DNA of 64,000 nucleotides from Nymphaea colorata (GCF_008831285.2 NC_045138.2:1302001-1366000); one strand, 5' to 3'; positions 12,971-59,442 are shown, counted from the stretch's first letter. Made by a program: numbers and translations. The notes: generated from the letters alone by a model not told the origin.

Positions 12971-13031
<61 letters not shown>

Positions 13032-13500
13032 TGACTTTCTAGTTTTTCAGAGTCACCCAACCATCTAATTAGGGTCATCGATCTAACATAATAGTAAGTC
13101 AAAAGAAATCAAAGAAAGAAGTTATGGATATTTTGGTTATTTAATATTATTCTAGACTTTTTCCTTTTAATTTTTCTCTCAATATCTATATGTTTCAAAT
13201 AGACGGCTCTTATTAGATGGTTGAATGACTTTGAATATAAAATTAAATGAAACAATGGAAATTCTGGAAAAAAAATGAAAAATCATAAATTCACGTGAGC
13301 TTGTTTCCTCACCATGTAGCAACAGCTAAGCTGACCAAAGACCTGTTGCCAAGAAAACAATAATAATTAACAATATAATAACAATAATTAAAAATACAGC
13401 CCGCTAGATTTAAGATCATGCTTTTGGCAGTCAGAGAATAAAACATGTAGAATTTCGTGCTTCAAAACGCCACGATCGACACTGGACTGCTCTTTCATGA
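9600..13500 (+). repeat. Multi-kb non-coding module, copy A (includes several embedded MITEs)
   Basis: 9860-11265 matches 46338-47750. 11290-11760 matches 49570-50100. 13235-13500 matches 53735-54000. 10735-11760 and 12030-12580 match 39290-42600 in reverse complement. Confidence 0.85.
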
Positions 13501-13833
13501 TACATGTAGATGTTGCAGCACAAGATCTCAAGTTTATGTCACCAGCATATGCTCAACTTAGCTGGAGCAACTATTTGCAAAGTCAAATTCAGCAGAAGAA
13601 GAAGGCAAATAAGGATAGGTAGGTTCGCTTTGCACTTCTTCTTTGTAGTATGTGTAGTACAACCTCAGATAGGCTTTGAAGGTTAACTGGGTTTTTACTA
13701 CGATGGTGTCTTACGGTATGCAACAAAAATATGAAGTCTGATGAAGATAAAATAGAAATATTTTGTGCTTCAATTTTCTTGTCTGAGGTAACACAAGTTT
13801 TAATCTTATGTCGATTTATTCACCTTTATCTCC

Positions 13834-17611: not shown

Positions 17612-20600
17612 TGTTGAATCTTAAGCAGCGGAACGGCGTCTGTGAAGTAGGTCCACCACCAGCAGCGTGTCAAATGCAAGACCTGTGAGCAAGAGAGGAA
17701 GAAAGAAACAAGAGAGAAATTGATTTTGGGGGTTTGCTTCTGAGAGACGCGCAGTTGATTTCTCAACCTTATGGTTAGATGAATAGAGGCTGGGCTTTAT
17801 AGACCGCCTCTCAGGATTTCCCCAAATCCCAGCTACGGTTATGGAATGAAGACTTATGGTAAGAATTAAAACGGAAACTTTAATATTTGATTTATTTCCT
17901 GTTTTAATTTCATAACTGCAGGATCTCCTTTGCAGTTATAGAGGGAAAGGGATCGGGCTCAAGGCCACTACCCAACATCTCCCACTTGGCCATGAGACCG
18001 ACAGTTTGCTTCCACTTTATGTGGGTTTTCTGTTTCTAAGTCACGAGGTTTTCCATTATTGGTTTGTCCATCGTAACTTTTCAAATATATCTCAACCCCA
18101 TATGAGCTACATGCTTGGTAAACAAGTCTTCTGATATTCCCTTGGTAAGGGGATCTGCTACCATGTCATTGGTAGGAATGTATTCAACTGAGATTTCATT
18201 TTTCTCAATCATTTCATGAACATAATGGTATTTCACCATTATATGTTTACTTTTCAGGCTCACAGCTCCATTTTTCATAAGTGATATTACTGTCTGATTA
18301 TCACAATATAGTTGAACTGGTTCATGATCAAGATCTAATTTCAAGTCTTTCAAGAACCGATTTATCCAGACAGCAAATGTGGTAGCAACATTACATGCTA
18401 CATATTCTGCTTCTTGTGTGCGTTGAGCAACACATCCCTGTTTCTTACAGGACCAGGCTATCGCTCCACCTCCAAAGAGGAATACATAACCAGATGTAGA
18501 CTTACTATCATCTTTGCATCCTGCAAAATCCGTATCTGAATAGCCAACTAAGGTCAGCTCATCAGCTTGGTAGGACAATTTTAGTCCTTTTGTTCCTTTA
18601 ATATACCGAAAAATCCTTTTGACTGCTTGCCAATATGGCCATCCGGGATTACTTTGATAACGACTTACCAGACCGATAGGAAAACTTATGTCAGGTCTGG
18701 CACAGAACATTAGATACATTAGACTACCAACAGCCTGTGCATAAGGAACATGTAATTTCTGTTGTTCTTCTCCAGGACAATCGTTCCTGCTTAGATTTGC
18801 TCCTTTAGCTATAGGGGTTCCGATTGGTTTGCAATCTTGCATTCGAAATTTCTTTAAGATATAATCAATATATCGTTCTTGGCTCAAACTTAGAATTCTT
18901 GGGTCTCTATCTCGAGTGATCTTTATTCCTAATATGTATGAAGCTTCACCCAAGTCTTTCATTTTGAAGTTTTTGTTCAGCCAAGTCTTCGTTTTGACAA
19001 TCATGTCGTTATCATTTCCAGTTACTAATATGTCATCAACATATAATGATAGAATACAGAAAAGGCTCCCACTTTTTCAAACATACACCCAGTGATCCAG
19101 TTGGTTTGCAACGAACCCAAGTTTTGTAATTGCTTTGTGAAAAGCAAAATACCATTGTCTAGGAGATTGTTTCAGTCCATACAACGATTTATTCAACTTG
19201 TACACTTTGTCTTCTTTTTCCTTGATGACATATCCTAATGGTTGAGTCATATATATAGTTTCTTTCAACTCACCATTCAGAAAAGCAGTCTTTACATCCA
19301 TCTGACAAATATCTAAGTCATAGAATGCCGTAATAGCCAAAATTGTTCTGATTGAAGCAAACTTTGCAACCGACGAATAGGTCTCTGAATAATCAATTCC
19401 TTCCTTTTGGGAAAAACCTTTCGCTACCAGTCTGGCTTTGAATTTTTCGACTGATCCGTCAGCTTTATACTTCTTCCTTAGCACCCATTTACATCCAATG
19501 GGTTTTCTGTCATTAGGAAGATCTACTAATTCTCAGACTTTATTCTTTTCTGTGGATTCAATTTCCTCATCCATAGCGTTCACCAATCTGATGATTCATG
19601 CGAATTTATCGCATCGTCATATGTCAGATTGTCAGACATTTCATCAATATCTGCTAAACAGCATAACTCCTCTGCAAGATATACATAATAATTACTCAAA
19701 TATGAAGGTGGAGCTCTAGGTCTTTTACGACCTAACAAAGTCTGAGTTGATAAGTTATTTGTATCAGTTGGTTCATTGCCTAACTGTTCTCCAGTCGGTT
19801 CATTACCATACTGTACACCAGACATTTCATGCTCAGTTGGTTCATTACCAAACTGATCTCCAGTCGGTTCATTACCATACTGTATTCCAGAAATTTCATG
19901 CTCAGTTGGTTCATTACCGAACTGATCTCCAGTCGGTTCATTGTCAGACTGATCTCCAGTCGGTTCATTGCCAGACTGATCCACAGTTGGTTCATTACCA
20001 AACTGTATTCCAATCAATTCTTGCTCGGTTGGTTCATTGCCAAACTGATCCATAGTTGGTTCATTACCAAACTGTACTCCAGTCGGTTCATTGTCAGACT
20101 GATCATCTGAATAAATCAGATCCTCCAGTAGATCGTTATGATCTTTCACTGGATTACTATGATTGTTATTTAGTTCTTCAAGTAACTCCACATCTCTACT
20201 TTCTATGAGACCCATAGTAGAATGATATAATCTGTAGCCTTTGGATTCTTTTGGATATCCAATAAACACACAACTTACTGATCTGTTATCCAGTTTATCC
20301 ATTTTTGGATCTAAAACTTTTACATGTACTACAGATCCCCATCTCTTGAGATGTCTTAAGTCTGGTTTCACACCAGTCCATCTCTCATAAGGAGTGGTTG
20401 GGACTGCCTTGCAGAGCACTTGATTTATAGTATAGATGGCTGTTAACTCAGCCTCTCCCCAAAAAACTTTGGGTAACTGTGCACCTGTCAACATGGATCT
20501 CACCATGTTCAAGAGGGTTCTGTTACACCTCTCAGCGACACCATTTTGCTGCGGTGTCCTAGGCATTGTTCTTTGCCTATTAATTCAAAGGTCTTTGCAG

Positions 20601-22179
20601 TGTTCGAAGAATTCATTTGATGTATATTCACCTCCTCGTTCAGACCTTATAACCTTGATGTTTTTCCCAAGTTGTCTCTTGACTTCAGATTTATATTCCT
20701 TGAATTTTTCAAGTGCTTCTGACTTATATCTAATAAGATAAATATATCCAAATCTTGAAAAGTCATCAATAAATGTTATAAAATATAACTTTCCACTATG
20801 TGTTTGGACTCTAAAATGTCCACAAATGTCGGTGTGGATTATTTCCAATAGATCAGTGGCCCGAATTATTTCAGATGGAAAAGGTTTTCTTGCCATCTTT
20901 CCATATAAACACGCCTCACATTTTGTGAAATCATTTGCTTTAATGTCAGGTATAATACCTTGTTGTGCTAGAATCTTCATCTTGTTGATCATGCCATAGA
21001 TTTGTATTCACATTCATCGCACAATCAATATAAGCAGAACTAGAAGATTTATTCATATCATTGAGTTTGAACATACCATGTTCCTTAACATATTTTTCAT
21101 CAAACATGGTCCTTCCATGTTTTCCCACTGTGACTTTCCATGGAACAAAACGAACTTCAAAACCTTTTCCAGTCAAAGCAGGGACTGACACTAAGTTCCT
21201 CTGCATAGAAGGAACATACAAGACTTTAGTAAGAATGACGCTTGTACCCCCAATATTCAGTCGATATGTGCCAACTCCCATTACATCACAGTATGAGTTG
21301 TTACCCATATAATCCTTTTGCATTCCTGGACTTAGGTTTTCCATACGAATCATGCCTTCTTTTGTTTTTGCAATGTGACGTGTAGCTCCCGAGTCGACCC
21401 ATCAACCAGTTAGATCTCCATCTGCAAACAAACACTCTGACACAACATAAATGACTTCTTCATTGTATTCATCATGATCTTTTCCTTTGTTTTTGTTGTT
21501 CTGAATCTTGTTGTCCTTCTTGTTCAAGAATTTTGTCCTGCAGTTCTTCTTGATGTGTCTAGGCTTCCCACATCTGTAGCATTTCACTACAGTTCCTGCA
21601 AAATTTCCTTTAAACTTGCCATCGGTTTTCTTTTTAAAGTCTTTAGACCTTATAGGCGCAAGATTTGTTGGTTTTTCTTGCGGAATTTAATACGAAATTG
21701 CGTGGTGGTACCCTCCAAGTTCTCATAAATTGCTAAAAGAGGGTTACAGTAAATTGTTTTGCAATTTTGGTGGAAAATAGAGATTTTTATGTACAATTAC
21801 ATACTGATACCAATGTTGAATCTTAAGCAGCGGAACGACGTCTGTGAAGTAGGTCCACCACCAGCAGCGTGTCAAATGCAAGACCTGTGAGCAAGAGAGG
21901 AAGAAAGAAACAAGAGAGAAATTGATTTTGGGGGTTTGCTTCTGAGAGACGCGCAGTTGATTTCTCAACCTTATGGTTAGATGAATAGAGGCTGGGCTTT
22001 ATAGACCGCCTCTCAGGATTTCCCCAAATCCCAGCTACGGTTATGGCATGAAGACTTATGGTAAGAATTAAAACGAAAACTTTAATATTTGATTTATTTC
22101 TTGTTTTAATTCCATAACTGCAGGATCTCCTTTGCAGTTATAGAGGGAAAGGGATCGGGCTCAAGGTCACTACCCAACA
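17612..22179 (-). mobile_element. Ty1/Copia LTR retrotransposon with both LTRs (17612-17977, 21814-22179), coding-defective
   Basis: 366-bp LTRs with TG..CA ends and ~6 mismatches; 5-bp TSD GGAAG; PBS TGGTATCAG; PPT AGTGGGAGA. Domains: Zn knuckle (CYRCGKPRHIKKNC), protease (DSGATRH-like), integrase (HTDICG, PQQNGVAER), RT (QMDVKTAFLNG, LYGLKQSPR) and RNase H. Multiple frameshifts. Confidence 0.97.
19765..20100 (-). repeat. In-frame tandem repeats in the Copia integrase-RT linker (27- and 42-bp units)
   Basis: Encodes about 10 copies of a GDQFGNEPT-like peptide. Confidence 0.9.
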
Positions 22180-24498
22180 GGAAGTACATCCTTTTGAATC
22201 TGTTTTCCAGAGACCGTAGCTTCGGAACATGTTGAGTACTTCTAATAGAGGCATATTAGAAAACAAATTCTGTGGTATTTTACAAAGCTTAAAAGTGAAG
22301 CCCATCCTAAGGATCCTCAGCTTTTTCCAATTTAGAAAACCATCAGGCAATTCTTTGACACCCGTCAAATATAAGTCTAGCACTTGAAGCTCAGGAAGAT
22401 CTACTACGGCGGCTATGTCTTCTAACATTTTGCAACCGTAGAAGTATAGAGCCCGAAAAAACTTTTTAGTTTGGTAAGAGAATCAGGCAGCCTCTTGATC
22501 ATGGTTCCGTTGAGGTTGAGTATGTCTAGTGCAAGCATAGAATCAAAGAAACTACACGGAATTGTTTTTATTCCCACACACCGTTCGAACAACAAAGTTT
22601 TCAGCTGCGGACTGACTGGCCTGTCTGGAAGTGTCTCTGTTTAAGTCCTCATCAGTGATATTCTCTTCTCTTTCTTCCAATCTTCCTCTGTTGGTGCGTT
22701 ACTCACTCTCCTACCTGTCTTTGTAAGACACATGGGTCCATATCCGGACGATGAGATGTACACAGCCAGGTCCCTGATCAGGTGATAACCTGGGTTTTCC
22801 AACAAGTTGGCATTTTTAAGCCTCAAGATTATGGTTTGACCCTTGTTGACAATTTTCTTGATGCTCATCTCGTCGCCTATGTAACCTTCGAAGTGCCAAT
22901 TTATGCTCGAGAAATATGTGAAAATGATCTCGTCCTCAAGAAACACTGACAAATATACGAAGCATTTTTTTGTTGTCTCATCCAAGAAATTGTAACTTAA
23001 CTTTAGAAGGTCAAAGACCCTTTGCTGCGTACCTTTGGTCTCGCCTGTGGATTGTTTTAGAGCTCTCAAAGTATCATCCCACACCCCGGCATCTTCATTG
23101 TTCATCAGGGCCGCTCCAATTGTGGCGATCGCTATCGGCAGACCACCGCACTCCCTAAGGACCTCCATTGCAATTTTTTCTATAGTTCGCTGTTTGATCA
23201 CATCCTGTCTTATGAAAGAATAGGGAGATCGCATCTTTCCAGCACATGGCTTCCACCTTGATGTTTCTGCGAGTTTGCATGGCATCGCATGCATCAAGGG
23301 CTCTACTTATGACCACAACTTTGCTTCCATTCACTGGATCAGGAACTCCCAACACTCTAATATCAACAAGTACTTCCTGCCATTCATTTTTGTTAAAATC
23401 AGTCCTTCTCCTTTGCTTAGATCTGCTCCTTCAGCTAAAGAGTGCTTTAGGTAGCGGGCAATCTTCTGTTGCAGGCGTTCGCAGTCGGGATCTTTGCCTA
23501 CTACAATGTGCATGACGTAGTCGAACTCTTTAGCTTTGTTGTGCACATGCTTCATGATAATAGCCTTGCCGACTTCCCCCATTCCGTGGATGCCGATCCT
23601 TGATATCCTGGCATCTTGTATGCTGCCCAAAATTTCCTTAACGAAGCGACTAGCAGTCTCCTGCCCAATGGTTCCAGGTTCAGTGGCACTGTCCAATTGA
23701 TTTCTCGAGGCCTTGACACATGTTCCACCTCCAATCGTGCATTCTCTATATGTGCAGCCACCTCCTTGTGTTTGCGCTCAGCTTCTTTCCCCCGTCCGTA
23801 GCAGTACAAATAGCTGGGCAAGGCACGGCAATAGGTGTACGTCAATTGGGTGTTCTGGAAGTCTTTGAAAATGCAATCTGCTTCATCCTTTAGCTCCCGA
23901 GTCTTCTTCTGCCACTCTTTTGCCTCCTGTCGAATATCTCTACCTTTAAGATTTTCATCGCTTACCAAGTTGTTTACACGCACTTCTATCTTTTTGAGCT
24001 TATTGTTTTCCCTTCCCAGAGTTTCATAGTTTGTTTCATGGTTATTCAGGTAATCCACATGCCTCCTTTTGTGGATGTACATCCATTTGAGCGACGCAAT
24101 AAGGCATTCACAGATGGCATCGGATGGAATGGGGATGCAGCCGTTGGCCATTCTGATCCTTCTCCTTGGTCCGCCCTTAAACCTGCAAGATGCTAGCAGC
24201 CAGCATATCTCTCTACATTCACAGAGATGCAAATCAAAGGCTGGAAGACAAGGAGAAAGGAAGTGCAAGTAAAAATGTATCATGTTTCTTTTTAATAATA
24301 AAAGGGGAACATTACTTTTGTCATTATAAAATTATTATATGAAATCTTTAGAGTTGATAAGAAACGTTAGGTGTATGGAGTTGTTTACAAGTAGGGCTAT
24401 GCATGAGCCAAATCTGGGTTTTGTATTTTTTTATTATTTAAAAACATTATTTAAGTGAGAAAATGACTATCAAAAAGCAATGAACAAGACTTCCTTTC

Positions 24499-30092: not shown

Positions 30093-30797
30093 TCAGTAAA
30101 GCAAGGCTAAGGCTGTCATTGCTACCGACAAGTGTCGGGTCCCATTATGCCCCCATACCCAAAAAAGATAGGCAATACGAACATCTATGTGGTCACTTTC
30201 ATTGGTGAAAAGGGTCACTCTTACTGTACAAAGCATCATACGATGTTTAATTCTTCTTATGGCTTTTCGAGATAAAGTGGAAGACTCAACATAAGCTCCA
30301 AATTCTTCATACAAGTTTTTCAAGTTGATACTTTGGCTCTCATGGTTTTCTACTAGAGACCAAGTTTTTCGTCCGATAAAATGGGCTATAAGGTCATTTG
30401 CATTAACCTTGGTCGGGTTCATGAGGAATTGTTTCTCTAATGGTTCATTTGGGTGACAAGTTGGGGTAGGGAGGTCTAGTATTTCGGTAAATTCATCTAG
30501 TATTGTCATTTCTCCCCGTGGAAACCAAAAAGAGGAGGTCCTTGAATTCCAACGTTCGGCGATTGCATGCACCAAATGTTCATCAACTGACTGCATTCTT
30601 CCAGCTTCCACTGTCTCTAGCCCAAATTCTTCAAAGTAAGAAGGAAACATCCGAGAGAAGGTGAGATGCCAAGACTGATACCATTCAGGAGCCAAAGGTT
30701 TAGACTCAAGAGAGATGTACGTAGACCATTCAGGTCCTTCCCCGAAGAGGATATGATCATATGGGAATGTGACGCCACGTTGGAAAGAATACATCAT
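30093..30797 (-). CDS. Plant mobile domain (PMD / aminotransferase-like, MAIN/MAIL-type) protein, probably retrotransposon-borne and truncated
   Basis: DEHLVHAIAERWNSRTSSFWFPRGEMTILDEFTEILDLP matches the PMD motif DxxLIxALxERWxxxTxxFxxxxGExTxTLxD. Confidence 0.8.
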   Translation of the reverse strand: MMYSFQRGVTFPYDHILFGEGPEWSTYISLESKPLAPEWYQSWHLTFSRMFPSYFEEFGLETVEAGRMQSVDEHLVHAIAERWNSRTSSFWFPRGEMTILDEFTEILDLPTPTCHPNEPLEKQFLMNPTKVNANDLIAHFIGRKTWSLVENHESQSINLKNLYEEFGAYVESSTLSRKAIRRIKHRMMLCTVRVTLFTNESDHIDVRIAYLFWVWGHNGTRHLSVAMTALALLY

Positions 30798-31594
30798 GAA
30801 GGATGACTCTAAAGGACAAAGATTGAATTAGAGAAAAGATTGACTAGGTTGACCAAGACAACATAAAGTAGAGATATGCAATGAGGTTGTGAAACATCAC
30901 ACAAGGTTTTATGCACATCCATATGTCATTTGAAATAATTTTTGTAGAAAAATTGGTATAGGAACCTAATTGTGATAATTTTGTGTCACGATAATCCAAT
31001 GTCAAGTTATATTTATATACTTTAGCTAAATGACTTAGTACTAGCATAGATTCTTTCTAAGGCAACTAAGGGTAAGGTTCATCAACTTCTACTTGATCGC
31101 TCGTCGATATACCATAAATTACCACTCATGGTACTAACGAGGGGGCTTTCCTGCCCAATGTGTGGTCTAGTTGCAAAGCTTAGTCTTGTGCTACCGCTAA
31201 AGACCAAGCCCGACAACATGATGACCGGGATAAATAGGTATGAGAAATTTTGAAATATGAGCAATCATGTAAAATGAGTTGTCTCTAATGCAATGCTGCC
31301 TATGATGTTGATTAAAATAAATAGAAGAGCGAACATTGTTTTCAAACAACTCTTAAATTGAGGAGGGTTGTATTTGATCATAGATCTATGTGAACAAGCT
31401 TGATCCTCCTTAATAGTCTTATATGCAAGAAAGTAAATACAATCACCAAGAAATGTAATGAAATGTCGATGGGGTCAAGGCCAAAGTTGCGAACATGCTT
31501 TATCATCGGCAATGTATGAGATGTTCAAGTTTATGAAATTTGCATCAATTATAATCATAGTCAAACAATGACGGGTCCCATCATGGTCGTCATC

Positions 31595-38077: not shown

Positions 38078-39289
38078 ACTTCATAAGTTCTCAAAAGTTT
38101 TGAATATCACTTCGTTTGGAAGACAAGGCACTTTAGATCTGTTTCTACACGATCGTCTAAGTGGGTCGAGGCCGACAAAAAAGTTTGTATTATTTTATGA
38201 AGGAAAGCATACAACGTGTTTGAGTCTACTCCATATTGTTGCGTATTTGAGATAATTCATCGAAAAAATTTATCTTTCTTTGGATGAGTAAGGAGAGTAT
38301 TTTATCCTACCGCCCAGTTAGAGGGACGAGACTCCCATCTTTCCCTTCATCCCTCGAAGTGTCATATTTGCTTTCAGTGCTTTAAAGTGATGTCTCTGTT
38401 ATGTTTTAACTTACATATTAGTACTCCTCCATCACAATACTAGAAATTGACATTTTCAGGTTCAAAACAAAGAATGTACGACAGAATAACAAAATAATTT
38501 GGTTTATATACTGTTTATATTGGCAGCTTGCTTATGCAATATGAACCCCTAGCTGGTCGGCAGCTGGTCACGTGTTAAAGTGACATGAGCACTAGACCCT
38601 TTGTGCCAATGATGTGGAGTACTGTGCTAAGTAGTCGACAACATGGGTTACATTGTAGTGGTAGAGCCACATATAGTTAGCGGTGGGTAGTTTCCCACAC
38701 TAGCCTTGTATTTTTTTTTTTTGGCATTGATACATCTCATTTTTGCACATTAATATATAAATGTGCTCCTAAAGATTTGAGTGCCTAAATTTCTTGGCTC
38801 GAACTCGGCTTGCGTGTCTTGAAAGAAACTCAAACTCCACTCAAGCTCGACTCGAGTTTTACTCGAATTTGATTTCATTAGCTCGAAGTCTACTATGCTC
38901 GAGTTCTTAAAACTCGAACTCGGCTTGATTAAGCTCGAGCCGAAGATTGGCTTTGAGCCGAGCCAAGCATTTCATTAATTTTGTTTTTTTTTAAAGGAAG
39001 AGGTATCACATGACTTGAAAATACTCAATTCAAAACCATATATATATATATATATATATAGAAAGAGGGAGAGAGTGAGTGAGTGAATGATGATAACAAG
39101 GGCAGTTTGTTTGAAACGTATAGTTATTGAGAGAAAAATAGGAAGAAAAAAATTTAAAATAATATTAGATGACCAAAATATCTACAATCTTTTTTTTTAT
39201 TTCTTTTAGCCGTCCATCGTGTTAGGTGTGTGCATCATAACGTTTGAGTTGCTTTTCACAAACATAATTATATAAATAAGTAAACGGCA

Positions 39290-41583
39290 TGAAATATATT
39301 ATTAAAAAGTTAAAATTGTGATGTATGAATCAAATTATAATAGTAGGGAAAGCTTAAATCAATCTTTTGTAAAATTTTATAAAATCTAGTTTATACATTG
39401 ATCGGAGGATTTTCTTAGATTAATATTTTTTTGAAAGGTGCTATCATGATAGTATTAAGGAGTATTGAGTTAGGTTTATCCTTGGAGGGTTACTAGTTGG
39501 TAGCTAATGTGGTAGAGTTTTTACCCTTTTTTTTTCTCTCTTCCTCTCCGTCTTTCTCTTTTTTACCATCTGTTCCATCCGCAATGGTTGACAATTTACC
39601 TGATGTCTTGGTTCATTTGTTCATGGTAGGTTTGGGAAGAGAGCAACAACCAAAAATATTCAAAAACTCACAGCCAAGTGTTGCTTCTATCAAATGCATT
39701 GTGAAGACAGATGTCTACCTCGTGCTTTCCTTTGCATTTGCTGGAGGATGTCTTTTTCTTTTGATTATCTCTTTCTCTCCTCCTCTTGCTTTTGTTCATG
39801 TCATGGTTACTTTTCTTTATCCTTTTTTTTGTCCTTACTTTGTCTTCTAATCTTTTTTTATGTCTAATTTTTGTTGATTGGTGATGCTGACAGAGCTAGA
39901 AATTTTTCATGAATAAGGTCAAATTAAAGTTTTTAAATTTTAACAGGCTTCAAAATATCATGTTTCAAAATTTTTATATAAGACAAGTGATTTTTTTTAA
40001 AAAAAATTACATGTACATTTAAAAAAATTAAGTGCCGCCGGGGCCCATGCGGGCCCCCCCTTTCGCCCATGATGCCCGGTCTCTAGAGTTTTGTCGTTAG
40101 TAAATTTCTTTGTCAGTTCTCTCTCTCTCTCTCTAGCTATTTTGAACACCATAATGAAGATTAAGCATCATAATTGAGATCGTTGTCGTAAATTAAATGC
40201 ATCGCGTTGTTAGCAATTTCAAGATAACATAAAAAAGGATGATTAAAACCATCGCGTTGTTAGCAATTTCAAGATAACATAAAAAGGGCTGATTAAAACT
40301 GTAGAGCACCTAAGAATTGCGATTAATTTATTTGATCTTCTTTGTTCTATGTGTTATGAATTATTAACGTGATTTTGTCTTAAGCTAATTAATTTTGTAT
40401 TATTTAGTGAGTTGGTCAGCTTTTATACTAAAAAAATCCCTTTTTTTTTTGGCAATATCATGAAAATTGAAAAAACTGTCATCCAAACACATTTTTAATT
40501 TCTGTGTCTAATCTGCCGATGAAGCCAATGGTAAAAAGAAAAAACTAACATAAATTAATGTGATGTGTAGGATTTATTAAATAAAAAAAGTTTTAAAACA
40601 ACATAAAAGATCACTTCCATGGCTCACAAGTTTTAAAAACAATATCAAAGACCTTCAGTGTTCAAAGTAGCAAATTGGATTCGAATCGGATCCATGTAGA
40701 ACTAATACAAAATTTTACTTCCTCTTTGGGTGGCTGAGTTTCACAATGAAAACACTAGGGATGTCGATGGTGCATAATGTAATGTTTGATTCATTTTCAG
40801 ATTCGACTAGTTTAAGCTTTTTAAGAAAAAGTTAGATTGGATGGTAAATTGGATATGGATTTGTTGCATGATTTTCTTTTCAATTTGGACTGGATATCCA
40901 AGCCTTTTTCATTCTTTCAAAAGACAAATTGTAAGTCAGGCCCAATCCTGGCCTGACACCTGAAATTCAGGCCCAGCTCGGGTCGGGCCCAATCAATTTA
41001 AATTATAAAATATATATTTTAATATAAAATCATATATAAATAATAAAATTATAATAAAATAATTATATATTTAAAATAATAAAATATACTTTAAAAATTA
41101 TTATTGGGCCCATCTGGCCCAGTCCCATAACATTTCCAGCTGACAGGTTGCCATTTTTTTTTTAAGGCTCGAGCTCAAACCCAAGCTAGCGGAGGGCTTG
41201 AACCCAAGGTAGGCGGAGTACCCAAGGTAGGGGGAGTATCAGGTAACCCATGACGTCCCAATCTTAATAAATTGTCAACCTCCTACTCAATAAAAAATAA
41301 AAAACATATGTTGTTAAATAATAGAATCGACCTCTCTCCAGCCAGTGCATGCATCGTTCCAGCCAACCGTTTTGGAGCAGCTGCCGATGGCTGGCAAGCA
41401 TAAGTTGGGTTGCAAATAAGTCACATCTCGTTTGAGGGTCTTGCCACTTTCAATCCCTATGCATTTAGCTGTGGCTGATTCAACCCATTTAAAACATCAT
41501 CTGATGTTATATTCATGCACTTCCACACACACAAGTGCATCTGCCTATTCAGGTGTTGCTTTATTCAGATCAAATTTGTGTTG

Positions 41584-41636
<53 letters not shown>

Positions 41637-42064
41637 AAGAGAGAGATTGGTAAAAACCAGACCAGGTAGATAAAGAAAAAAAGCAGACCCCTTAACATCA
41701 ACTATTGTTATTATTATTATTTTTTTTGCAATCTAACATTATGGGTATGGATATGATTTGACAGTAATTTGGTGAGAAACATACCTTAAGTTAGTAGGTT
41801 TTTTTTTCTTAAATAATGTTTTCTAATAATAAAAAAAATGAACTGTTCATACAACATCTAAATTTGGATAGTAAAAAGATTTCTTTTACAAAAATACTTA
41901 AACTAAAGCATGATTTATATTAAATTAGCATTTATATGGTTTTTATCCCTTACTCAAGCGGTCTGGGGTATCTACCAATATATATATATATATATAAACT
42001 GATTTATCCTAAATTAGTGTTTATATGGTTTCTATTTCTTACCCAAGTGGTTTGGTATGTACCA

Positions 42065-42114
<50 letters not shown>

Positions 42115-42600
42115 GTGCTCTGGTATCTACGTCGTTGGCAACAATAATGTATTCTCATGTTTTAGATAAGAGAGAAAGAGATTAATATTAAAACTGTGAC
42201 ACATTTAAGAGATTGCAGTTGTCCTATTTCATTTAATTTCTCCTATGGTGGTATGAATTGTCCAATCCATTTTGTCTTAAGCTAATTAATTCCACATTAT
42301 AATTTAGTTAGTTGGTTAAGGATCATAATAAAAAATGTGGATCTTTTCTTATGAAAATATCATGCAAGATGCATCTAGAACTAAATCTGATAAACAGTCC
42401 TCCAAACATGTTTAAATTTGTTGAAGTCAATGGAAGGAAGAACTAGATGGTCGTATGCTAAATCATTTGTAGGACAGTAGACCGCTCATCATGTGTGTGC
42501 CAATATCAAGTGGAGCTAAGCCTGGGCGTTGGGTCGTGTACCCAGTTGGCTCGACTAGGGCTCCATAAAAAGGCACCGGGTTGACCCGATAACTTAGTGG
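39290..42600 (-). repeat. Multi-kb non-coding module, copy B (inverted)
   Basis: Reverse complement of 10735-12580, 47230-47750, 49570-50720 and 53355-53550. Confidence 0.85.
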
Positions 42601-43113
42601 ACCTGAACTGAACCTACGGTAAGATACTCTGAAAGTGTCTTAATTTACATAACCTTTTCTTTGTCATGCTTGTATTAGGATAATATCGTCAGATTATTTA
42701 CTTTTTCATGCTGTCAGCACTTCTATTCTTGTTTGTTTGTTAATTATTTGCTGCTAGGCAGGAAAATGGATTTACAAGTCAGGGTATTGCAATGTTTCTT
42801 CTGCAAATGTGCTGCTGTTCGAGGGGCTTATCATTACATTCTTGTGTCGAACAGCAACTAGAATTTCTTCCATAACTATTCCTGTTGTCAATAATTGCAG
42901 TCCCTTAATGTAGAGATCCTTAGATGGTCTGATAAATACCAGCAGTGATCTGCCCACAAACATGATGTGCAGAACACATACGAAGCACTCCTATTTGAAG
43001 CACATGTATCAACCTTTTGAAGCTACTATTTTGTAACTGTTTGGGACATTTTGTTGGTTTTAGGTGGTGCATGTGGTTTTAGAGTGCAGGTTTGTAGACT
43101 TACTTGTCTGCAG

Positions 43114-46247: not shown

Positions 46248-46338
<91 letters not shown>

Positions 46339-47813
46339 ATGAAATTAATATTAAAAAAAAATCTTATCGAGTCAAACAAGGCTTAGTCAGGCCCACCCGA
46401 GCTGGCCCCAATGCCTTTTTTCAGGTCCGAGTCGAGCCAGGTACCCGATCCGACACCCAGCCATAAGCTCAACTCGAGTTCGGCTGGGTTATGTATTGCT
46501 TGGCTCAATTCATTTAAGCCTGTGTTACTTGACTCTCTCTCTCTCTCTCTTTTTAATGGAAATGAAACCATGGAGAGTGTTAAAAATTCATAAAAAAATT
46601 ATCGGCATACAAAGATTAACAAACAGGGAAGACACGAGTCAAGTCGAGTTTGAACTCAAACTCGATTCGACTCTTTTATAACTCATAACTCAAGCAAGTT
46701 CAAGTTGAGCTCAAGTTGAGCATACACAAACAAGTTCAAGTCGAGTTCAAATTGGTTCAATTCATTGTATATCCAAGCAATATAACCAATATGTGAGTGA
46801 AAGAGTGCATGTGATGAGAGAGTCTAGTTGCGATTAACTGGTTCAGTCTACATGTAAGTGACAGACCTCAACTGAATACTAACGACAACGACCACTTTTC
46901 AGACGAAAAAATTTGTATGAAAATTTTAAAAATTTTAGTTTAGCATATATAAAAATTTTGAAAGTTTTTATTACAGCTCCTCTTAAAATTGTGAAACTAT
47001 AGTTGATCTATGGAACGAAAAATTGCTGGCTCCACCTAGGCCTGCTTATCGGGCCGACCTGACACTTGAAACCCCAGCCCGATCCTGGACCGATTAAAAC
47101 TAAAAAATATGTATATTAATATAAAATAATACTCGTAATAAATATTATAATATATAAAAATCAATAAAATTAATATTAAAAAAAATCTTATTGGGTCGAA
47201 CCGTGCTTAGTCTGGCCTACTAGGGTCGGTCCACTAAGTTATCGGGTCAACCCGGTGCCTTTTTTTTTAGCCCGGGTCCAACCAGGTACTGGGTACACAA
47301 CCCAACACCCAAGCTTAGCTTCACCCTCTTGATCTAATGGCTGGGGTTCTGATATTGGCATACCCATGTTGAGCGGTCTGCCGTCCTACAAATGATTTAG
47401 CATACCACCATCTAGTTCTTCCTTCGGTGCCATTGACTTTAACTGAGCAAACTCTTGTTTTCTGAATTTAAACATGTTTGGAAGACTGTTTCTCAAATTT
47501 AGTTCTAGATGCATCTTCCTTGATATTTTCATAAGGAAAGATCCGAATTTTTTATTATGAACCTTAACCAACTAACTAAATTATAATATGGAATTAATTA
47601 GCTAGACAAAATGGACTTGATAATTCGTACCACCATAGGGGAAATTAAATGAAATAAGACAACTGCAATCTCTTAAATGTGTCAGAGTTTTAATATTAAT
47701 CACTTTTTCTGTTATCTAAAACATGAGAATACATTATTTCCAATGGCGTAGATTTTGTCAATTTTAATATATATTATCAAATCTCAGTTTGACATCTAAT
47801 GCATCTTACTGAC

Positions 47814-48174
47814 AGTGGTGGAGCCAGCATTTTTTCCGTTAAGAGACACTTGAATTGGTAACATAAGTTTGGTGTGGGCAAGAGCGGAACCAGAGTTTTT
47901 TCGGAGGAGGGCCGAATTAAAGTTTTTAAATTTTGGCAGGGGCCAAAATATCATTTTTCAAACTTTTTGTATGAGACAAGTGAAATTTTCTAAAATTTAC
48001 TTGTAATTTTTTTAAAAAAAAGGTGGGTCCAGGGCCCATGCAGGCCCCCTTGGGTGTGGGCATAGCATGTAATTTTTGAGTCCTCACAATGTGATCTTGA
48101 GATGCTATAATAAGATTTTTGTTTGGCTGGTGTGGGCAATTGCCCACACCTGCCAACAAGTGGTTCTACCACTG
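47814..48174. mobile_element. MITE with a nested second MITE (~47880-48060)
   Basis: TIR CAGTGGTGGAGCC / GGTTCTACCACTG. The inner element resembles 11847-12030, 35468-35655 and 39890-40070. Confidence 0.65.
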
Positions 48175-49368
48175 CTTGCTGCCTCAAATCCCATTGAGAA
48201 GTTCTTGCTTTGGCACAATCAAGATGGCGTATCCTTGTGCGCCACTAAACTGTCGATTGAACATCACAACCGGCAACGGAGACAGGTATAGGGTAGGTTG
48301 CAAAGTGTATCTGAAGGTAGAAGCAGCCGAAGGATTGAAGTTCTCCCCCTTCTCCTCGCTGACTACTTCAGGACATGAGTGGACCCATAGTACACCGTTT
48401 ACTAGAGCACCGCACCATTTGCAGCCCAAAAGAGTAGTGCCTACGTGAATTGAACTGAAAATCAGGCTCTCACCAGCCCGCCAGTTTGACTAACTATGCT
48501 ACACCATTGAGACTGAAAATTGCTGCCTTCACTTGCTAGTCATAAAAGAGGAATACTTCCTTTACTTTAATTTTTTGAACATAAGTTCAAAAGGAAGTCT
48601 TTCTTGAATGGGATATAAATCAATCAAATTTGGACAACCGATTTCAAATAACCTTGATATAGAGAAAAAGAATTAACATATGATTAAGGAATCAGATCAA
48701 ATTCAGATATAAGAAAAAAATTGATTGGATGTGGATACGATTTTAAAAACTATCGAATCAGGTTTTGATCTGGATCTGGATTCAGTTTCAAACAAATATC
48801 TTATATCCATTATCCATACATTTTGGAAGTTAATTCTTAACATATATAATATGGTTGGGATTCAATTGCGCATTTGAAAGTCAGATTTGGATTTGATGCG
48901 AAAAATAAAAGTCGGTTTCGAATCAGATTCGGGTTGTGAATTTAAAAATTGGGTTATGATATAGTAGACTTTTATATGTTCGTATTAAAAATTAAACATG
49001 TCAATACCCAATAAATCAAATATGGTAAAATATACATCCAATTCAAATTTGAACTATTGACATCCGTGGGCTTGAACCTTCTTTAGCAATGTTAAATCCC
49101 TTTGTATGAGTCAATTTCAGAAAAATTGCCCAAACTTGATCACTTAACAAGTCTTGTTTGAGCTGAGTCAATTAAGCTTAGTTGACCTGGAGGAGGCTCC
49201 TTGACCACCACAATGTCTGGTCTTCGTGTGATGACTATATGCATTTCAATATAAGCTGGTTTCCAATTCACATCTGATGACTCCCATTGTGATAGCATGT
49301 TAATTGTTACCTAATTTCGACTTAATTAATTAAATCTTCTCCTATTGCTCTTTTTCTCTCTCTCTCTG

Positions 49369-49408
<40 letters not shown>

Positions 49409-49885
49409 CTACCAAACGAACCAAATATAACTGGTCTGCTAAGGGATGAGATTGGCTTCCTTATTATTTCCCTTGGCCTCAACTCTTCCTTGTAGCATTG
49501 AGATGAGCAAAAGGATAACTCTCTCTCCCCTTGATCGCTCAACTTCTAGCATTGAGATGGAGTATATATATAGTGATTGATAGATACCAGATTACTTGGG
49601 TAAGAGATAAAAACCACATATACACTAACTTAATATAAATCATGCTTTAGTTTAAGCATTTTTATTTAAAAAAACTACCCAAATTTTGATGTTGTGAAAA
49701 TGGTTATTTTTTTATTATTAAAGAAACGATTAACTTAAAGTATGTTTCTCAACAAATTACTTCTAAAATCATATTTTATAACCATAAGGTTAGATTGCCA
49801 AAATAATACTAATAATAACAATAGTTGATTTTAAGGGGTTTGGCTTTTTTTCTTTATCTAATTGGTCTAATTTTTACCAATCACA

Positions 49886-49965
<80 letters not shown>

Positions 49966-51963
49966 CAACACAAATTTGATCCCAATAAAACAATCTTGCC
50001 TTGTCCGTGTGGAAGTGCATAAATATAAAATCAGATGAAGTTTTAAATGGATTGGATCAGCGACAGTTAAATTGCAAAGTGATTGAAAATGACAAGAGGC
50101 TCAAACCAGATGTGACCTATTTGCAGCCCATCTTATGTAGCTGCCCCAAAACGGTTGGCTAGAAGAGAGCATGCACGGGCTGCACAGATGTCAATTCTAT
50201 TTAAAAACATTTTTTTTTAATTTTTTAGTGAATAGGAGGTTGACAATTTATTATTCAAAAAAAAAAAAAGACCAGAAGCTCTACATACAACAAATCCATA
50301 TCCAATTTACTAATCCAATCTAAATTTTCTTACAAAAGCAGACTAGTCGAATCTAGAATGAATCAAACATTAGATTATGTCTGCACCATCGACATCCCTA
50401 CTCAATTCTGTTTTCATTGTGAAACTCAACCACCCAAAGAGGAATTAAAACTTTGTATTAGTTCTAGATAGATCCGATTCAAATCCAATTGCTACTTTGA
50501 ATACTGAAGTTCTTTTATGTTATTTTAAAACTTGTGAGCCATCGACGAGATCTTTCATATTATTTTAAAACTTATTTTTATTTAATAAATCGTGCACATC
50601 ACATTAATTTATGTTGGCTCTTTTGACCATTGGCGTCATCGGCAGATTCTAGACACAGAAATCAAAAATGTGTTTGAATGACCGTTTTGTTCAACTTTCA
50701 TGATATTCCCGAAAAAAATCGAAATTTTTTTTTCTTTGTATTATTTAGTGATAACAGGATTTGCTTTGTCATGCAAATACTCTACACCTCTAGCTGCACC
50801 AACTACAATCTTCATACTAGTATTCCACTCAAGAGGTCTTCTTCCAGGTTGGACATCTGAATTGAACAAAAAAAAAAGTGCAAATTAACACTTGCATTCT
50901 TCAGCAATTGAGTTTCTGACAATAACATCTGTTCAGTCTCGGACCCAAAGAACTCGACACAAGCTTACAAATGAACCAAACAGAGGTGCATGTAGAAAAC
51001 ATGAAAACCAGTATATTCATTAAAATGCAGGTCAATTCAGAAACATCTTCACATCTACCAGCCTAACACCAGAAAAAAAAAAAAAAAAAAGCCTAAGAAG
51101 GTTCAGATCACAAGTGCGATATCTCATGTTACTTGGTTGAATGAAAACACTAATTTGAAGAGCACAGGAAACATCTTCAGAAGAATATGAGTTGCAAAAA
51201 GCAAATCAATTTTCAAGAGAAAAATTCTACTTTGGGTAGACTTGGTATTTTATCCAACCAAGAAGTTGACAATAACAAACACGTAATTTCTTGTACTAGT
51301 GCTTCTCTCGTGGACATGGCTTAGTTACCATGCTTTCAAGCATTTATCACAATGACAAACATGGCTTAACTAGCATAGAAAGACAAGATGATCAAACTGT
51401 TATGTTCTCAAACAAATAGCTGATACAATTTCAAAAGAATAGTGAGGCTAGAAACTCGTCTAAAGAAGGATTCAGAAGTTACAAGGGCCGTGATACCACA
51501 CAAATACAAGCATTTTGATGATTTAGTTGAGAGTCAGGTGCAAACATTTTGCTCTACAAGAAGACAACAATCCAAGAACAAAAATCAACCAGCATTTTCA
51601 CGTACAATTGAAACATGACACGTACTTCACCAAGGCAAGAAACCAACGAAAATCAAAAGGAAGAACAATCTAAATTACCAAACAGATGGTCTTCCATGCT
51701 GCCAATTGACATGTATTCATACACCAAAAGCCTCTGATCAACATCTGCGCAGTATCCAATCAGGTTAACAAGATTGGAATGGTGCAAAAGGCTTTTGGTG
51801 TATGAATACATGTCAATGGGCAGCTTGTTAAGCCTTTTGCACTATTTCAATCTGGAGGTGCTCATGTTAAGCCTTTTGCACCATTCCAATCAATGAGCAC
51901 CTCCAGATTGAAATAGTGCAAAAGGCTTAACAAGCTGCCCATTGACATGTATTCATACACCAG

Positions 51964-53330
51964 AAGCCTTTTGCACCATTCCAATCTTGTTAACCTGATT
52001 GGATACTGCGCAGATGGTGATCAGAGGCTTTTGGTGTATGAATACATGTCAATGGGCAGCTTGGAAGACCATCTGTTTGGTAATTTAGATTGTTCTTCCT
52101 TTTGATTTTCGTTGGTTTCTTGCCTTGGTGAACTACTTGTCATGTTTCAATTGTACGTGAAAATGCTGGTTGATTTTTGTTCTTGGATTGTTGTCTTCTT
52201 GTAGAGCAAAATGTTTGCACCTGACTCTCAACTAAATCATCAAAATGCTTGTATTTGTGTGGTATCACGGCCCTTGTAACTTCTGAATCCTTCTTTAGAC
52301 GAGTTTCTAGCCTCACTATTCTTTTGAAATTGTATCAGCTATTTGTTTGAGAACATAACAGTTTGATCGTCTTGTCTTTCTATGCTAGTTAAGCCCATTG
52401 TCACAAAAAACGGGAACGGGTATTAAACGGCGAGAAAAAAAACGGGTATAATACGGCAAAGTTTTATATATCGGAAATAAAACGAGAAAAGTTCAGCAAA
52501 TTTTTTTAAAAAATTAAACATTTAATACATCTTAAAAATTATAAAAAATAATAATTAATAAAAAAACGAGAAAATAACGTATAATACAGGTATTATACAG
52601 GTATTAAACGGGTTTTTTGACGTTTGTTTTTTAAAACGGGAATAGTACGGGTATTATACGGCAGAACTGTTCTTGGCATTAAATACGCGTTTTTTTAAAA
52701 AAAAACGGCGTTTTTTGTGACAATTTAAGCCATGTTTGTCATTGTGATAAATGCTTGAAAGCATGGTAACTAAGCCATGTCCACGAGAGAAGCACTAGTA
52801 CAAGAAATTACGTGTTTGTTATTGTCAACTTCTTGGTTGGACAAAATACCAAGTCTACCCAAAGTAGAATTTTTCTCTTGAAAATTGATTTGCTTTTTGC
52901 AACTCATATTCTTCTGAAGATGTTTCCTGTGCTCTTCAAATTAGTGTTTTCATTCAACCAAGTAACATGAGATATCGCACTTGTGATCTGAACCTTCTTA
53001 GGTTTTTCTTTCTTTTTTTCTGGTGTTAGGCTGGTAGATGTGAAGATGTTTCTGAATTGACCTGCATTTTAATGAATATACTGGTTTTCATGTTTTCTAC
53101 ATGCACCTCTGTTTGGTTCATTTGTAAGCTTGTGTCGAGTTCTTTGGGTCCGAGACTGAACAGATGTTATTGTCAGAAACTCAATTGCTGAAGAATGCAA
53201 GTGTTAATTTGCACTTTTTTTTTTCAATTCAGATGTCCAACCTGGAAGAAGACCTCTTGAGTGGAATACTCGTATGAAGATTGCAGTTGGTGCAGCTAGA
53301 GGTGTAGAGTATTTGCATGACAAAGCAAAT
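51964..53330 (+). pseudogene. Fragment of an RLCK-VII (PBS1-like/PBL) receptor-like cytoplasmic kinase gene, mirrored on the minus strand at 50759-51795
   Basis: [38 protein letters not shown] | GT-AG intron 52080-53232 | [33 protein letters not shown]. Covers about kinase subdomains III-VIa only. Confidence 0.93.
52396..52724 (+). mobile_element. MITE (same family as 513-880) inserted in the right palindrome arm
   Basis: CATTGTCACAAAAAACG ... CGTTTTTTGTGACAAT with duplicated TTAAGCC. The left arm (~51360-51372) shows the empty site. Confidence 0.92.
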
Positions 53331-54892
53331 TTGTATTATTTAGTGAGTATTTTCAACTCACTAAATAATACAAATTTAATTAGCTTAAGACAAAATCACG
53401 TTGATAATTCATAACACATAGAACAAAAAAGATCAAATAAATTAGTCCCAATCTCTTAGGTGCTCTACAGTTTTAATCATTTCTTTCATGTTATCTCGAA
53501 ATTGGTAACAACGCGATGCACTTAATTTACAAAAACGGTCTCAATTTTTGATGTGGTTTCCATTTTCTAACTACAAAACTTTGGACAGCAGGCATGAGGG
53601 GGCAGAGCCAAGCGGGGCTCACATGGGCCTTGGATCCAGATTAATTTTTTTCAATTTATATATATATATGAGATTTTGAATTGAGCATTTATTATGCTGT
53701 CCTATCTTTTGACAGTCAAATAGGATAAGGTCGGTCAAAACACATAAAATTCAATGAAACAAAGGATATTCCGAAAGAAAAAATGAAAAATCATAAATTC
53801 ACGTGAGTTTGTTTCCTCACTCGTCTAGCAACAGCTAAGCTGACCAAAAACCGGTCTCCAACAAAACAAAAATATAATTAACAATAATTAAAAATACAGC
53901 CCACTAAGATTTAGGATCATCCTTTTGGCAGTCAAAGAAGAAAACATGTAGAATTTTGGGCTTCAGACGCGACCATCGACATTGGACTGCTCTTTCTTGA
54001 TATTCATAAATAAACGGGAATATCGATCGCCATTCCTCTAAACGCTACCTGAATTGATGTTCCGTGTGTTCTCGAGAGAGATTCATGGCGGATTTTGGGC
54101 ACCAATTCATTTCTTTTATCTTTCCCATGATGAGAGGTTCCTAATCCTACGTCTTTTTACTGTTTTCTCTTTTTTTTTTTAGTCTTTTAATGAGGTGTAG
54201 GTACACTTATTAATTAAATTGACTAAATTTTGCATCTTGAGAGTCGAACTCTTGACCTCTTTAAGTCAAAGTTGTTAGGGCAGCTTGATTATATTTGAAT
54301 TAGCGTAGTTTTGTTAATACCAAAATTGGAAATGCTACTCTCAATTTTTATTGGTGCTAGGAAGCTGTGCAAGAAAAGTAAGTGTTTATGAAAAATAGAT
54401 AATTTTGTATTTTAATTGTTGTCTTGAGGGAAATCCACTTATAGATATATGTAAAAAAAATGCTTGTATTTTTTCTATGTTGGAGATGAAAAAAAAAAAG
54501 AAAAAAGAAAATCGATAATTTTATATTTGGTCTATTTTTGGGTTACCGAAGATTAATTGCAATACATTTCCAATATCACTAAACGTACATGTCCTGTTTA
54601 GCAGGTTTTTGTTTGCTCCATCTCTCATCAAAACAGGTCCAAAATTTATGAACTGATGAAAAACGGGTTACATTAAACGTCGTTTGGCAGCAGCAGCAAG
54701 AACACTCCATGAGTGTTCCTATGAACCTATTCTAAATATTAACGTAAAATCTTGTAATACTTTAACTATTGTTCCTGAAATATGCTTTAATTTATGGAGC
54801 AGTTCAAGGAACACTTCATGATGTCACCAAATATTAAGGTAAATTCATAGAACACTTGAACTATGGTTTCTTAAATATGCTTTAATCTATGG

Positions 54893-57300: not shown

Positions 57301-57571
57301 CCCAAACCCCAACAACATAATATTTCGCAGGACACTTGCAGTTCACCTATTAGTGAAACCGCGTTGTTCCTAACCCAAACAACATAATGTTTGGTAGGAC
57401 ACGTGCAGTTCACCTACTAGTGAAACACCGCGTTGTTCCTAACCTAAACAACATAATATTTCACAGGACACGTGCAGTTCACCTACTAGTGAAACACCGC
57501 GTTGTTCCTAACCCAAACAACATAATATTTCACAGGACACGTGCAGTTCACCTAGTAGTGAAACCGCGTTG
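57301..57571 (+). repeat. Tandem repeat, 67-69-bp unit x4
   Basis: AACAACATAATATTTCACAGGACACGTGCAGTTCACCTACTAGTGAAACACCGCGTTGTTCCTAACCC repeated. Confidence 0.92.
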
Positions 57572-57900
57572 TGGATATCATGGGCAATTGTCACACCAGC
57601 CCTTGCATTAGTACTTCATTTTTTATCTTTTTGTCTACATATGAGTACCAAATTTAAATTATTATGCATTTTATAATAATTAAAGTAGTTATAAATGTGA
57701 TTATCGCTTCCTTGTTACGCAATTAGGTTTGTGGTTTTGGTTTATTAGTGGTAGCATAATGGGCAATTGTATTTGTTCAACTATCATTTTGCTGTATTTA
57801 ACATTCAATTTTAAAACCAAGTTTTTGTTTCCTATTGTCATCCAAGCAGAGAAACCAGGTTCTGTAGGTTTTAAGAAGGTGTCATCCCAACACCCTTTGA

Positions 57901-58302: not shown

Positions 58303-59442
58303 TATAGTTATAGCCTCTCATAAGGGACGACGTGTTATGGGGCTAAAATAATGAAAATGTTTTTAAATCATAGTCACAAACAATGCGTTTTTTTTTTAAA
58401 TAAAACTAAAAAAATGTGATAAATTAAATGGCATTTAAAACTTATAAAAACACGTTTTTTAAAAAAAATGTTAAAAACAAAAAACGTGTTTTTCACTTTT
58501 TCTTTTTTTAATGTCAAACACTTTTTTTTTATTTTGTATTTGTTGCAAATATATTTTTATTAGTTTCTGAGTTATTTTATTTTTTTATCTTTTATTTTTA
58601 AAAAAAATTACTATATTTTTCTCTCTTTCTTTTATTTTAAATCGAAATCCGAAGTCATGGACGCCAAGGAACTCTCCTCTCTCCCCGAGGACGCTGAAGA
58701 AGAGCCGCTGTCGAACCTTCCTCCGTCGGCGTCCCCGATCGTCCGCCGATTCCGTACGATCTTTCCCTTTTTCTTTCATTTTTGCGTTTCACGTCCTTTC
58801 GTTTGCGTGGTTTCAGGAGAAGTCTCCAATCATTGTCCTCGAATTGTTTTCCAGATTAGAATTATCTCTGATTTACGATGTAGTCAGTTTTATTTTCTTC
58901 TGTTTCTGCATACTCCGAGAAAAAAAGGAAAGGTTGATGTTTGATACCTTCCCCGAGCTTCCACTGTTCAGTATGCTTTTGATTGCCGTCGTTAGACTTC
59001 ATGTTTAAGCTTGTGGAATCAATATGTGCGCTTCATTCGAGGGAGGTCGTTCGAGGATGGGACACCTTTATAAATGAATCTGTCTCTCGGTCTCAACATA
59101 CTCGACGAGTCTCAATTGTTTCGAATTTTTTATTTTTAGAATGGGATATTTACAGAATCCCATGAAGACAGAAGTTATTTATTTTTCTAAAACCTTTTAT
59201 AAGTTTTATTCCTGATCTAATCGAATATCGACCGATCCAATCAGAAAAAAATAGATATGAAAAAAAGTTTTATATTTGATTACGGCATCCGATAGGATTC
59301 AAATTCAGATATACATAAATTTGATACTTCTTTTTCTAAAAAACGCTTCTTTAAAGATTCTTGAGGCATCCAATTTACTCATGATGGTTTTAATTAATGG
59401 GTCATGTTTTCTTCCATCACACACACATCAAATCTCTCTTTT

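Follow-up and report, generated by a model that had tools for sequence, protein, structure and literature searches.

A palindrome derived from a PBL21-like kinase gene within a dispersed repeat of Nymphaea colorata, with joints that point to a probable break-repair origin

A palindrome with arms of about 1.1 kb was analyzed in a window of 64,000 nucleotides from Nymphaea colorata (GCF_008831285.2 NC_045138.2:1302001-1366000); the window is this whole stretch, and positions are counted from its first letter. The palindrome is confirmed as a real sequence structure. By its sequence, it belongs to a known kind of gene-derived inverted repeat; it is young, and its origin can be read with unusual clarity. 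It consists of an exon-intron-exon segment of a PBL21-like kinase gene duplicated in inverted orientation within a dispersed repeat. It probably formed by one DNA-break repair event, and it is probably either silent or a weak producer of siRNAs, most of them 24 nt long. A sequence-only reading of the same DNA had recognized the palindrome but overlooked the record of its origin at the centre, at the outer ends, and in an empty related site.

Structure and fidelity of the palindrome

The repeat finder resolved the arms (50759-51865 and 51893-53330) into four collinear inverted pairs, and the 64-kb window contains one copy of the palindrome. A global alignment over about 1,107 paired bases shows 98.9% identity between the arms, with 12 substitutions and, in two A-runs, small indels, in line with the earlier description of near-perfect ~1.1-kb inverted arms that are about 99% complementary. 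A 336-nt alignment gap, present in the right arm only, corresponds to a 329-nt MITE plus a 7-nt duplication. The left arm takes in about 8 more nt of the donor exon, reaching 50752, and has a gap of 3 nt close to its outer end. The loop, the right arm, and the MITE are located as follows:

51866-51892, no strand: unpaired loop of 27 nt (repeat finder and RNA fold)
51893-53330, plus strand: right arm, mirror of 50759-51865, with an exon piece at 51964-52079, the intron, and an exon piece at 53233-53330
52396-52724, no strand: MITE of 329 nt, absent from the left arm, with terminal inverted repeats of ~17 nt and a duplication of 7 nt

When either strand is folded as RNA, pairing is predicted for about 2,440 of its 2,651 bases, in helices of up to 252-277 bp; this agrees with the earlier claim that the locus would form a hairpin if transcribed. 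For the central 381 nt, the folding z-score was -43.7, and none of 100 shuffles equalled it. The palindrome is not a product of chance.

It is very improbable that the palindrome is an assembly artefact, with a second arm or a centre produced by fold-back reads or by the head-to-head joining of two haplotypes. The 12 arm differences and the right-arm-only MITE with its own duplication argue against such an error, and on these grounds the locus had rightly been held not to be a simple fold-back read artefact. Further evidence came from public sequence runs, of which 7 of the 24 listed were compared; the kinds (DNA or RNA) of the contig runs are guesses. In run X1 (organism A, DNA by guess), a 125-nt contig at 50691-50815 with 1 difference spans the left junction, contigs match both flanks with 0 differences (50411-50719 and 53451-53944), and left-arm letters are carried at 52133 and 52137. 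Support for the left junction is limited in its independence, because X1 may be the source sample of the window. The two flanks also join as a single repeat in a related copy (see below). On the side of an artefact, no piece among those listed for X1 spans the right junction, the centre, or a joint between MITE and arm; 51866-51937 is uncovered among the listed contigs, and such a contig hole proves nothing.

The donor kinase gene and its intron

The upstream exon piece matched Pfam family PF07714 (on 51965-52078), and its best solved-structure matches (PDB) were PBL2 and BIK1. The N. colorata protein XP_031476137.1 (P0007) showed 100% identity over this piece. Over the downstream exon piece it shares 32 of 33 residues, and the paralogue XP_031484153.1 shares 29. 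Both water-lily paralogues clustered with PBL21-named kinases (support 100/98) in a tree built from 33 rows selected among the database matches. These matches identify the donor as the counterpart of XP_031476137.1, an RLCK-VII kinase of a PBL21-like clade; the RLCK-VII/PBL origin proposed before is thereby upheld. The captured fragment corresponds to about residues 123-202 of 405 in the donor protein and includes neither the promoter nor the 5′ part of the donor gene. As it ends upstream of the catalytic loop, it cannot make a kinase. The left arm carries the fragment in antisense:

50752-50856, minus strand: downstream exon piece, donor residues ~166-202 by translation; the donor continues in loose ends at 50757
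50857-51678, minus strand: intron of 822 nt, GT..AG on the minus strand, skipped exactly by 44 reads of RNA run X21
51679-51794, minus strand: upstream exon piece (SLLHH...EDHLF); the donor continues past 51794 in loose ends

This arrangement bears out the earlier account of two partial exons with an intron between them, but not its statement that the intron is complete: the arms hold 822 nt, and donor contigs of runs X1 and X3 have 274 letters where the arms have only 52137-52138. Contigs of organism B stop at the same intron point as this donor segment, and their ends suggest that a 274-nt intron segment was lost in the copy. Compared with the X3 donor contig, about 2% of 815 intron bases of the right arm differ, but only 1 of 214 exon bases (P about 0.05-0.08 for this contrast under a uniform rate). 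This might indicate, weakly, that the copied template was a different working allele of the donor. The donor intron seen in the RNA runs also differs from the arms by ~2%.

Intron-keeping donor contigs were present in X3, X7, and X10 at roughly one-tenth of the spliced depth (52.1 vs 382.4 in X3; 5.7 vs 51.6 in X7). Two X21 reads connect 50859 with 51622 through 18 other letters, which may reflect an alternative splice form.

Template switches at the centre

Adjoining the antisense copy, the centre is made of short pieces in sense orientation:

51795-51827, plus strand: switch piece 1, sense re-copy of the exon, with a 6-nt microhomology at 51789-51794
51828-51853, plus strand: switch piece 2, sense re-copy from further upstream, with a 2-nt microhomology and two C-to-T changes found in both arms
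51853-51891, plus strand: switch piece 3, sense copy EVLMLSLLHHSN, with a 1-nt microhomology taken from the donor loose end; donor loose ends at 51853 and 51891

The loop consists of the last 26 nt of switch piece 3 plus one base. Its size is near that claimed before (27 nt vs ~26), but it is no plain loop, since 51789-51891 comprises three re-copied sense exon pieces. All three switch joints are mirrored in the right arm; being present in both arms, they must precede the fold-back. Switch pieces 2 and 3 reach up to ~13 nt upstream of the end of the antisense copy, and sense pieces lying upstream of the antisense stop favour a double-stranded DNA template. Retention of the intron does not by itself prove such a template, because intron-keeping donor contigs coexist with the spliced joint in X3, X7, and X10. 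The claim that the copy was made from DNA rather than from cDNA is thus likely to be correct, owing to the upstream-reaching sense pieces and not to the intron on which it had been based.

Insertion site and outer joints

On both sides, short fillers separate or overlap the kinase-derived sequence and a dispersed repeat:

49563-50734, plus strand: left flank, dispersed host repeat interrupted by the insertion
50735-50751, no strand: left filler, 17 nt that repeat the right flank in inverted orientation and 53331-53347 in direct orientation
53327-53348, no strand: right filler, 21-22 nt that repeat the neighbouring right flank in inverted orientation, with an overlap of 3-4 nt with the kinase end
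53354-53546, plus strand: right flank, where the same host repeat resumes

Within the window, the left flank is matched in two parts (50284-50731 by 40870-40430 at 85%; 49563-50253 by 41992-41265 at 76%) and the right flank in one (53354-53526 by 40414-40242 at 91%). In this related copy, the equivalents of the two flanks lie 15 nt apart (40430 to 40414) with no insert between them, and loose ends in run X2 represent additional empty copies of the host repeat. By these alignments, the two flanks are halves of one dispersed repeat, from which ~15 nt were lost at the insertion site relative to the related copy, itself not a true empty allele. An inverted match of 17 nt occurred in 1 of 1,240 random window pairs used as a control, and the right filler pairs with 53356-53377 as a small hairpin. 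The 17-mer is not a plain target duplication, because it has the opposite orientation in the empty related copy.

The deletion of ~15 nt, the microhomologies of 1-6 nt, and the inverted flank copies of 17 and 21 nt are features of TMEJ scars. In Arabidopsis, hallmarks of TMEJ described in the part of the source available are microhomology deletions and flank-templated fillers in forward or reverse-complement orientation, with templates sometimes located on other molecules (PMC10923293). The locus resembles these plant break sites in its small deletion, its microhomology, and its reverse-orientation pieces templated by the flank. Unlike those fillers, the insert is 2.2 kb long, stems from another gene, and is folded back, which exceeds the examples in the available part of that study (PMC10923293). 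Polymerase theta is a candidate only, because the fillers presented there adjoin engineered breaks and include no kb-long palindrome in the portion seen.

In the break-repair origin that we consider probable, a broken end within the repeat would have primed synthesis on the donor gene, of which ~1.1 kb would have been copied antisense. Three template switches at microhomologies of 1-6 nt would have followed, after which the new strand would have folded back on itself to yield the second arm. Rejoining to the other broken end would have left the inverted flank copies at both joints and the loss of ~15 nt. Polymerase-theta-type end joining or break-induced copying would be the likely machinery. 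A two-step route, by which a small hairpin formed first and the insertion took place at a staggered break, would fit equally, because the 17 nt of the filler also stand in direct orientation at the two ends of the insert.

RNA-templated formation, in which a LINE-type reverse transcriptase copied unspliced donor RNA and the cDNA folded back and inserted with a 17-nt target duplication, is very unlikely. It would account for the identical 17 nt directly repeated at 50735-50751 and 53331-53347 and for the left arm, which runs antisense from the downstream exon in the direction of a first-strand cDNA; intron-keeping donor contigs do occur in runs with the spliced joint (X3, X7). However, a poly(A) tail is absent, the empty related copy carries the 17-mer in the opposite orientation, and the sense pieces of the centre, ~13 nt upstream of the antisense end, would require the other strand of the donor or a second cDNA. 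A processed retrocopy was rejected, as the 822-nt intron is kept and the tail is absent.

Extremely unlikely, too, is gene capture by a transposon (Pack-type or foldback) with the arms as long terminal repeats of a mobile unit. Pack-MULEs and Helitrons commonly take up gene pieces, according to the accessible part of a published account (PMC10004981), and the insert does sit in a dispersed repeat. Against this, transposon-type termini are absent around the palindrome, the insert is missing from related copies of the repeat in the window, and the left-arm loose ends in X1 run into the donor gene, none of those listed leading to another arm insertion site. Pack-type capture in particular was discarded for the lack of transposon termini and for the inverted 17-mer in the empty related copy.

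Age of the fold-back and presence in other samples

As the MITE is found in the right arm only, it was inserted after the fold-back. The divergence between the arms is 1.1% (95% interval 0.56-1.9%). With assumed substitution rates of 1.3e-8 to 3e-9 per site per year, the fold-back would be about 0.4-1.8 million years old. Nine changes could be assigned to one arm, seven to the left and two to the right, an unevenness that is not significant (p = 0.18).

A second copy of the MITE is located at 511-880 (81% identity). Each copy is compatible with a 7-nt duplication if one terminal change is allowed. In X1, the family reached high depth and had many insertion sites elsewhere, and further copies appeared in RNA-like runs.

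Contigs of run X2 (organism B) carry none but donor letters at 50785 and 51643; contigs show presence and not absence. The locus may be polymorphic. In X1, contig depths were ~10-20 for hairpin-only, 40-51 for donor-only, and 64-68 for shared intron sequence. Although depth does not equal copy number and one hairpin-only contig with a depth of 46.8 fits poorly, these values hint that the hairpin is on fewer chromosome copies than the donor.

Transcription and silencing potential

For raw RNA run X21, ~6% of the run was read and 221 reads were aligned. Three sites distinguish both arms from the donor; there, the reads carried the donor letter in 99 of 100 (50785), 8 of 8 (51643), and 7 of 7 cases (51667), leaving a single read at 50785 without it. 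At five sites changed in the left arm only, the donor letter was likewise found throughout (99/99, 86/86, 65/65, 72/72, and 72/72). Depth over 50000-50703 in the left flank was 0 in the ~6% of the run that was read, from plants that may lack the locus. Runs X3, X7, and X10, whose kind is guessed, gave donor-type contigs with the spliced joint in all and no cover of 51866-51937 or 53378-54000. None of the hairpin-type letters or joints was listed in X21, X3, X7, or X10, which may derive from non-carriers. X22 yielded 0 aligned reads, which is uninformative. None of the 24 runs listed bears a small-RNA label, and no indexed run returned as holding the sequence is recorded as RNA, which says nothing about expression. 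Detecting long hairpin precursors in wild-type tissue is difficult, as stated in the available part of PMC10827316. The RNA results are therefore weak tests, because the plants may lack the locus and long precursors are hard to detect.

Without the MITE, 285 of the 1,102 nt of the right arm are exon-derived, and ~74% of the stem is intron. Perfect matches to the two donor exon pieces were found for 153 of 1,082 right-arm 21-mers (~14%). With a stem that is mostly intron, most siRNAs would hit the donor intron and could act only via methylation or on pre-mRNA.

A Pfam scan was performed on 149 stretches: 147 of the 207 ORFs of at least 55 aa that remained after filtering across the whole window, plus the two exon pieces. 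It revealed no other gene among the ORFs scanned in 36-64 kb, where short exons would be missed. At gathering thresholds, Rfam gave 0 matches in the 64 kb. TATA-like words near the element were rejected as promoters, as they lie in (TA)n runs or in the host repeat.

With no captured promoter and no gene nearby, small RNAs from the break-repair palindrome, if any, would come from Pol IV or from stray read-through. Mostly matching the intron, they would lead to methylation of the donor rather than to targeting of its mRNA.

An active endogenous hairpin of the same origin, transcribed by Pol II in carriers and giving rise to 21/22/24-nt siRNAs that lower or methylate the donor in trans, is unlikely, though the most credible of the alternatives to a silent or weak locus. 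Favourable points are the long stem predicted for either strand, the 153 right-arm 21-mers perfect to donor exons, and a centre that repeats exon sequence. Precedents are IR71 and Mu killer (PMC10827316) and the ARR17 fragments of poplar (PMC9636151), as far as the accessible parts of these sources go. On the other side, hairpin letters, joints, and flank cover are missing from what was listed in X21, X3, X7, and X10, where the donor is spliced; the promoter and the 5′ part of the gene are absent from the captured piece; roughly three-quarters of the stem is intron; and the locus lies in a repeat-rich region with no neighbouring gene found in the scanned ORFs. The stronger proposal of the sequence-only reading, silencing of the donor kinase in trans by the palindrome locus, appears doubtful. 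Equally doubtful is a newborn hairpin gene that segregates in water lilies after a single break-repair birth and produces siRNAs by which a PBL immune-signalling kinase is tuned in carrier plants.

If the locus is polymorphic and makes siRNAs, it would amount to a naturally occurring knock-down allele for an RLCK-VII kinase of an early-diverging flowering plant. A silent palindrome would be ordinary raw material. Plant genomes contain many inverted repeats, and the window itself holds a second, older one.

Comparison with known inverted repeats

The locus is a long inverted repeat able to fold back, as are endoIR loci such as IR71 and IR2039 of Arabidopsis. With these it shares a near-perfect fold-back of more than 1 kb, which DCL2/3/4 would process if it were transcribed (PMC10827316 and 10.1101/238691, in the parts available). 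An endoIR-siRNA locus is transcribed across both arms and gives a population of RDR-independent siRNAs of 21-24 nt. Transcription and siRNAs have been demonstrated for IR71, according to the same partial sources, whereas those of the palindrome are hypothetical. It further differs from endoIR loci in being built from one identifiable kinase gene and in consisting of about three-quarters intron.

An inverted piece of a founder gene is also the starting point in the inverted-duplication origin of MIRNA genes (proto-MIR; MIR161, MIR163, MIR822), as outlined in the accessible parts of PMC10004981 and PMC2582634. Unlike a proto-MIR, the palindrome has no captured promoter, a stem of ~1.1 kb, and an ectopic site in a repeat, and its joints still record how the duplication was made. 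MIRNA hairpins are short and imperfect, typically <300 bases, in the part of 10.1101/238691 available. MIRNA genes also yield a precise miRNA/miRNA* duplex. A MIRNA gene was rejected on size, with a stem of ~1.1 kb that is 98.9% paired, and the window has no Rfam match. The label proto-MIRNA that had been suggested would apply only in the loose sense in which any long gene-derived inverted repeat could be so called; in size the locus is no MIRNA. The inverted-duplication model holds that such repeats arise, and a locus with its joints, its donor, and an empty related site would show how, base by base, through break repair, template switching, and fold-back.

Like maize Mu killer, the palindrome is an ectopic inverted partial copy of a gene. 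Mu killer is reportedly transcribed by read-through from a flanking gene. The Y-linked partial ARR17 repeats of poplar are ectopic inverted partial gene copies as well, but these yield 24-nt siRNAs that methylate the donor promoter, whereas the fragment analyzed here is from the middle of the gene (PMC9636151, as far as available). Primate miRNA hairpins that arose by template switching were likewise formed in one step; in the portion of 10.1101/2023.04.19.537475 available they are short and local, in contrast to a palindrome that is kb-scale, ectopic, and target-derived. No literature on this locus or on an RLCK-VII-derived hairpin was found in a search that took in few subscription papers, with supplements outside its scope.

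Other features of the window

The second, older inverted repeat spans 168-2366. Its inner arms (1091-1575 and 1698-2172, 92%) enclose a 122-nt spacer, and its outer arms are located at 168-358 and 2180-2366 (89%), with ~730 extra nt on the left side that include the MITE copy of the same family. By eye, the inner arms contain lookalikes of a TATA box, a CT-rich leader, and a 5′ splice site, all facing outward. This repeat gave no Pfam match above the cut-off and no Rfam match. A 15-nt piece in its spacer, considered as derived from the palindrome arms, was dismissed as chance level (36 of 400 controls).

Three patchwork blocks (9796-13502, 39094-42603, and 46270-54002) have nested dispersed repeats in common at 70-90% identity; one of them hosts the palindrome. 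An LTR retrotransposon at 17612-22179 has 366-nt direct repeats that are 98.4% alike, with RVT_2 and rve domains in broken frames. It lies at the LRR end of a broken NB-ARC/LRR resistance-type gene (22138-24331, minus strand, several frames). A 244-aa ORF (30093-30827, minus strand) has a weak Plant mobile domain match below the cut-off (PF10536) and is likely a transposon remnant. An Atlas search with the ORF at 58564-58941 returned scores of at most 0.80, including a weak F-box lead at 0.75 that is not evidence; the ATG-started ORF at 58658-58941 lies downstream of a CT-rich stretch. Finally, a tandem array of ~67-nt units that are roughly 90% alike occupies 57302-57572.
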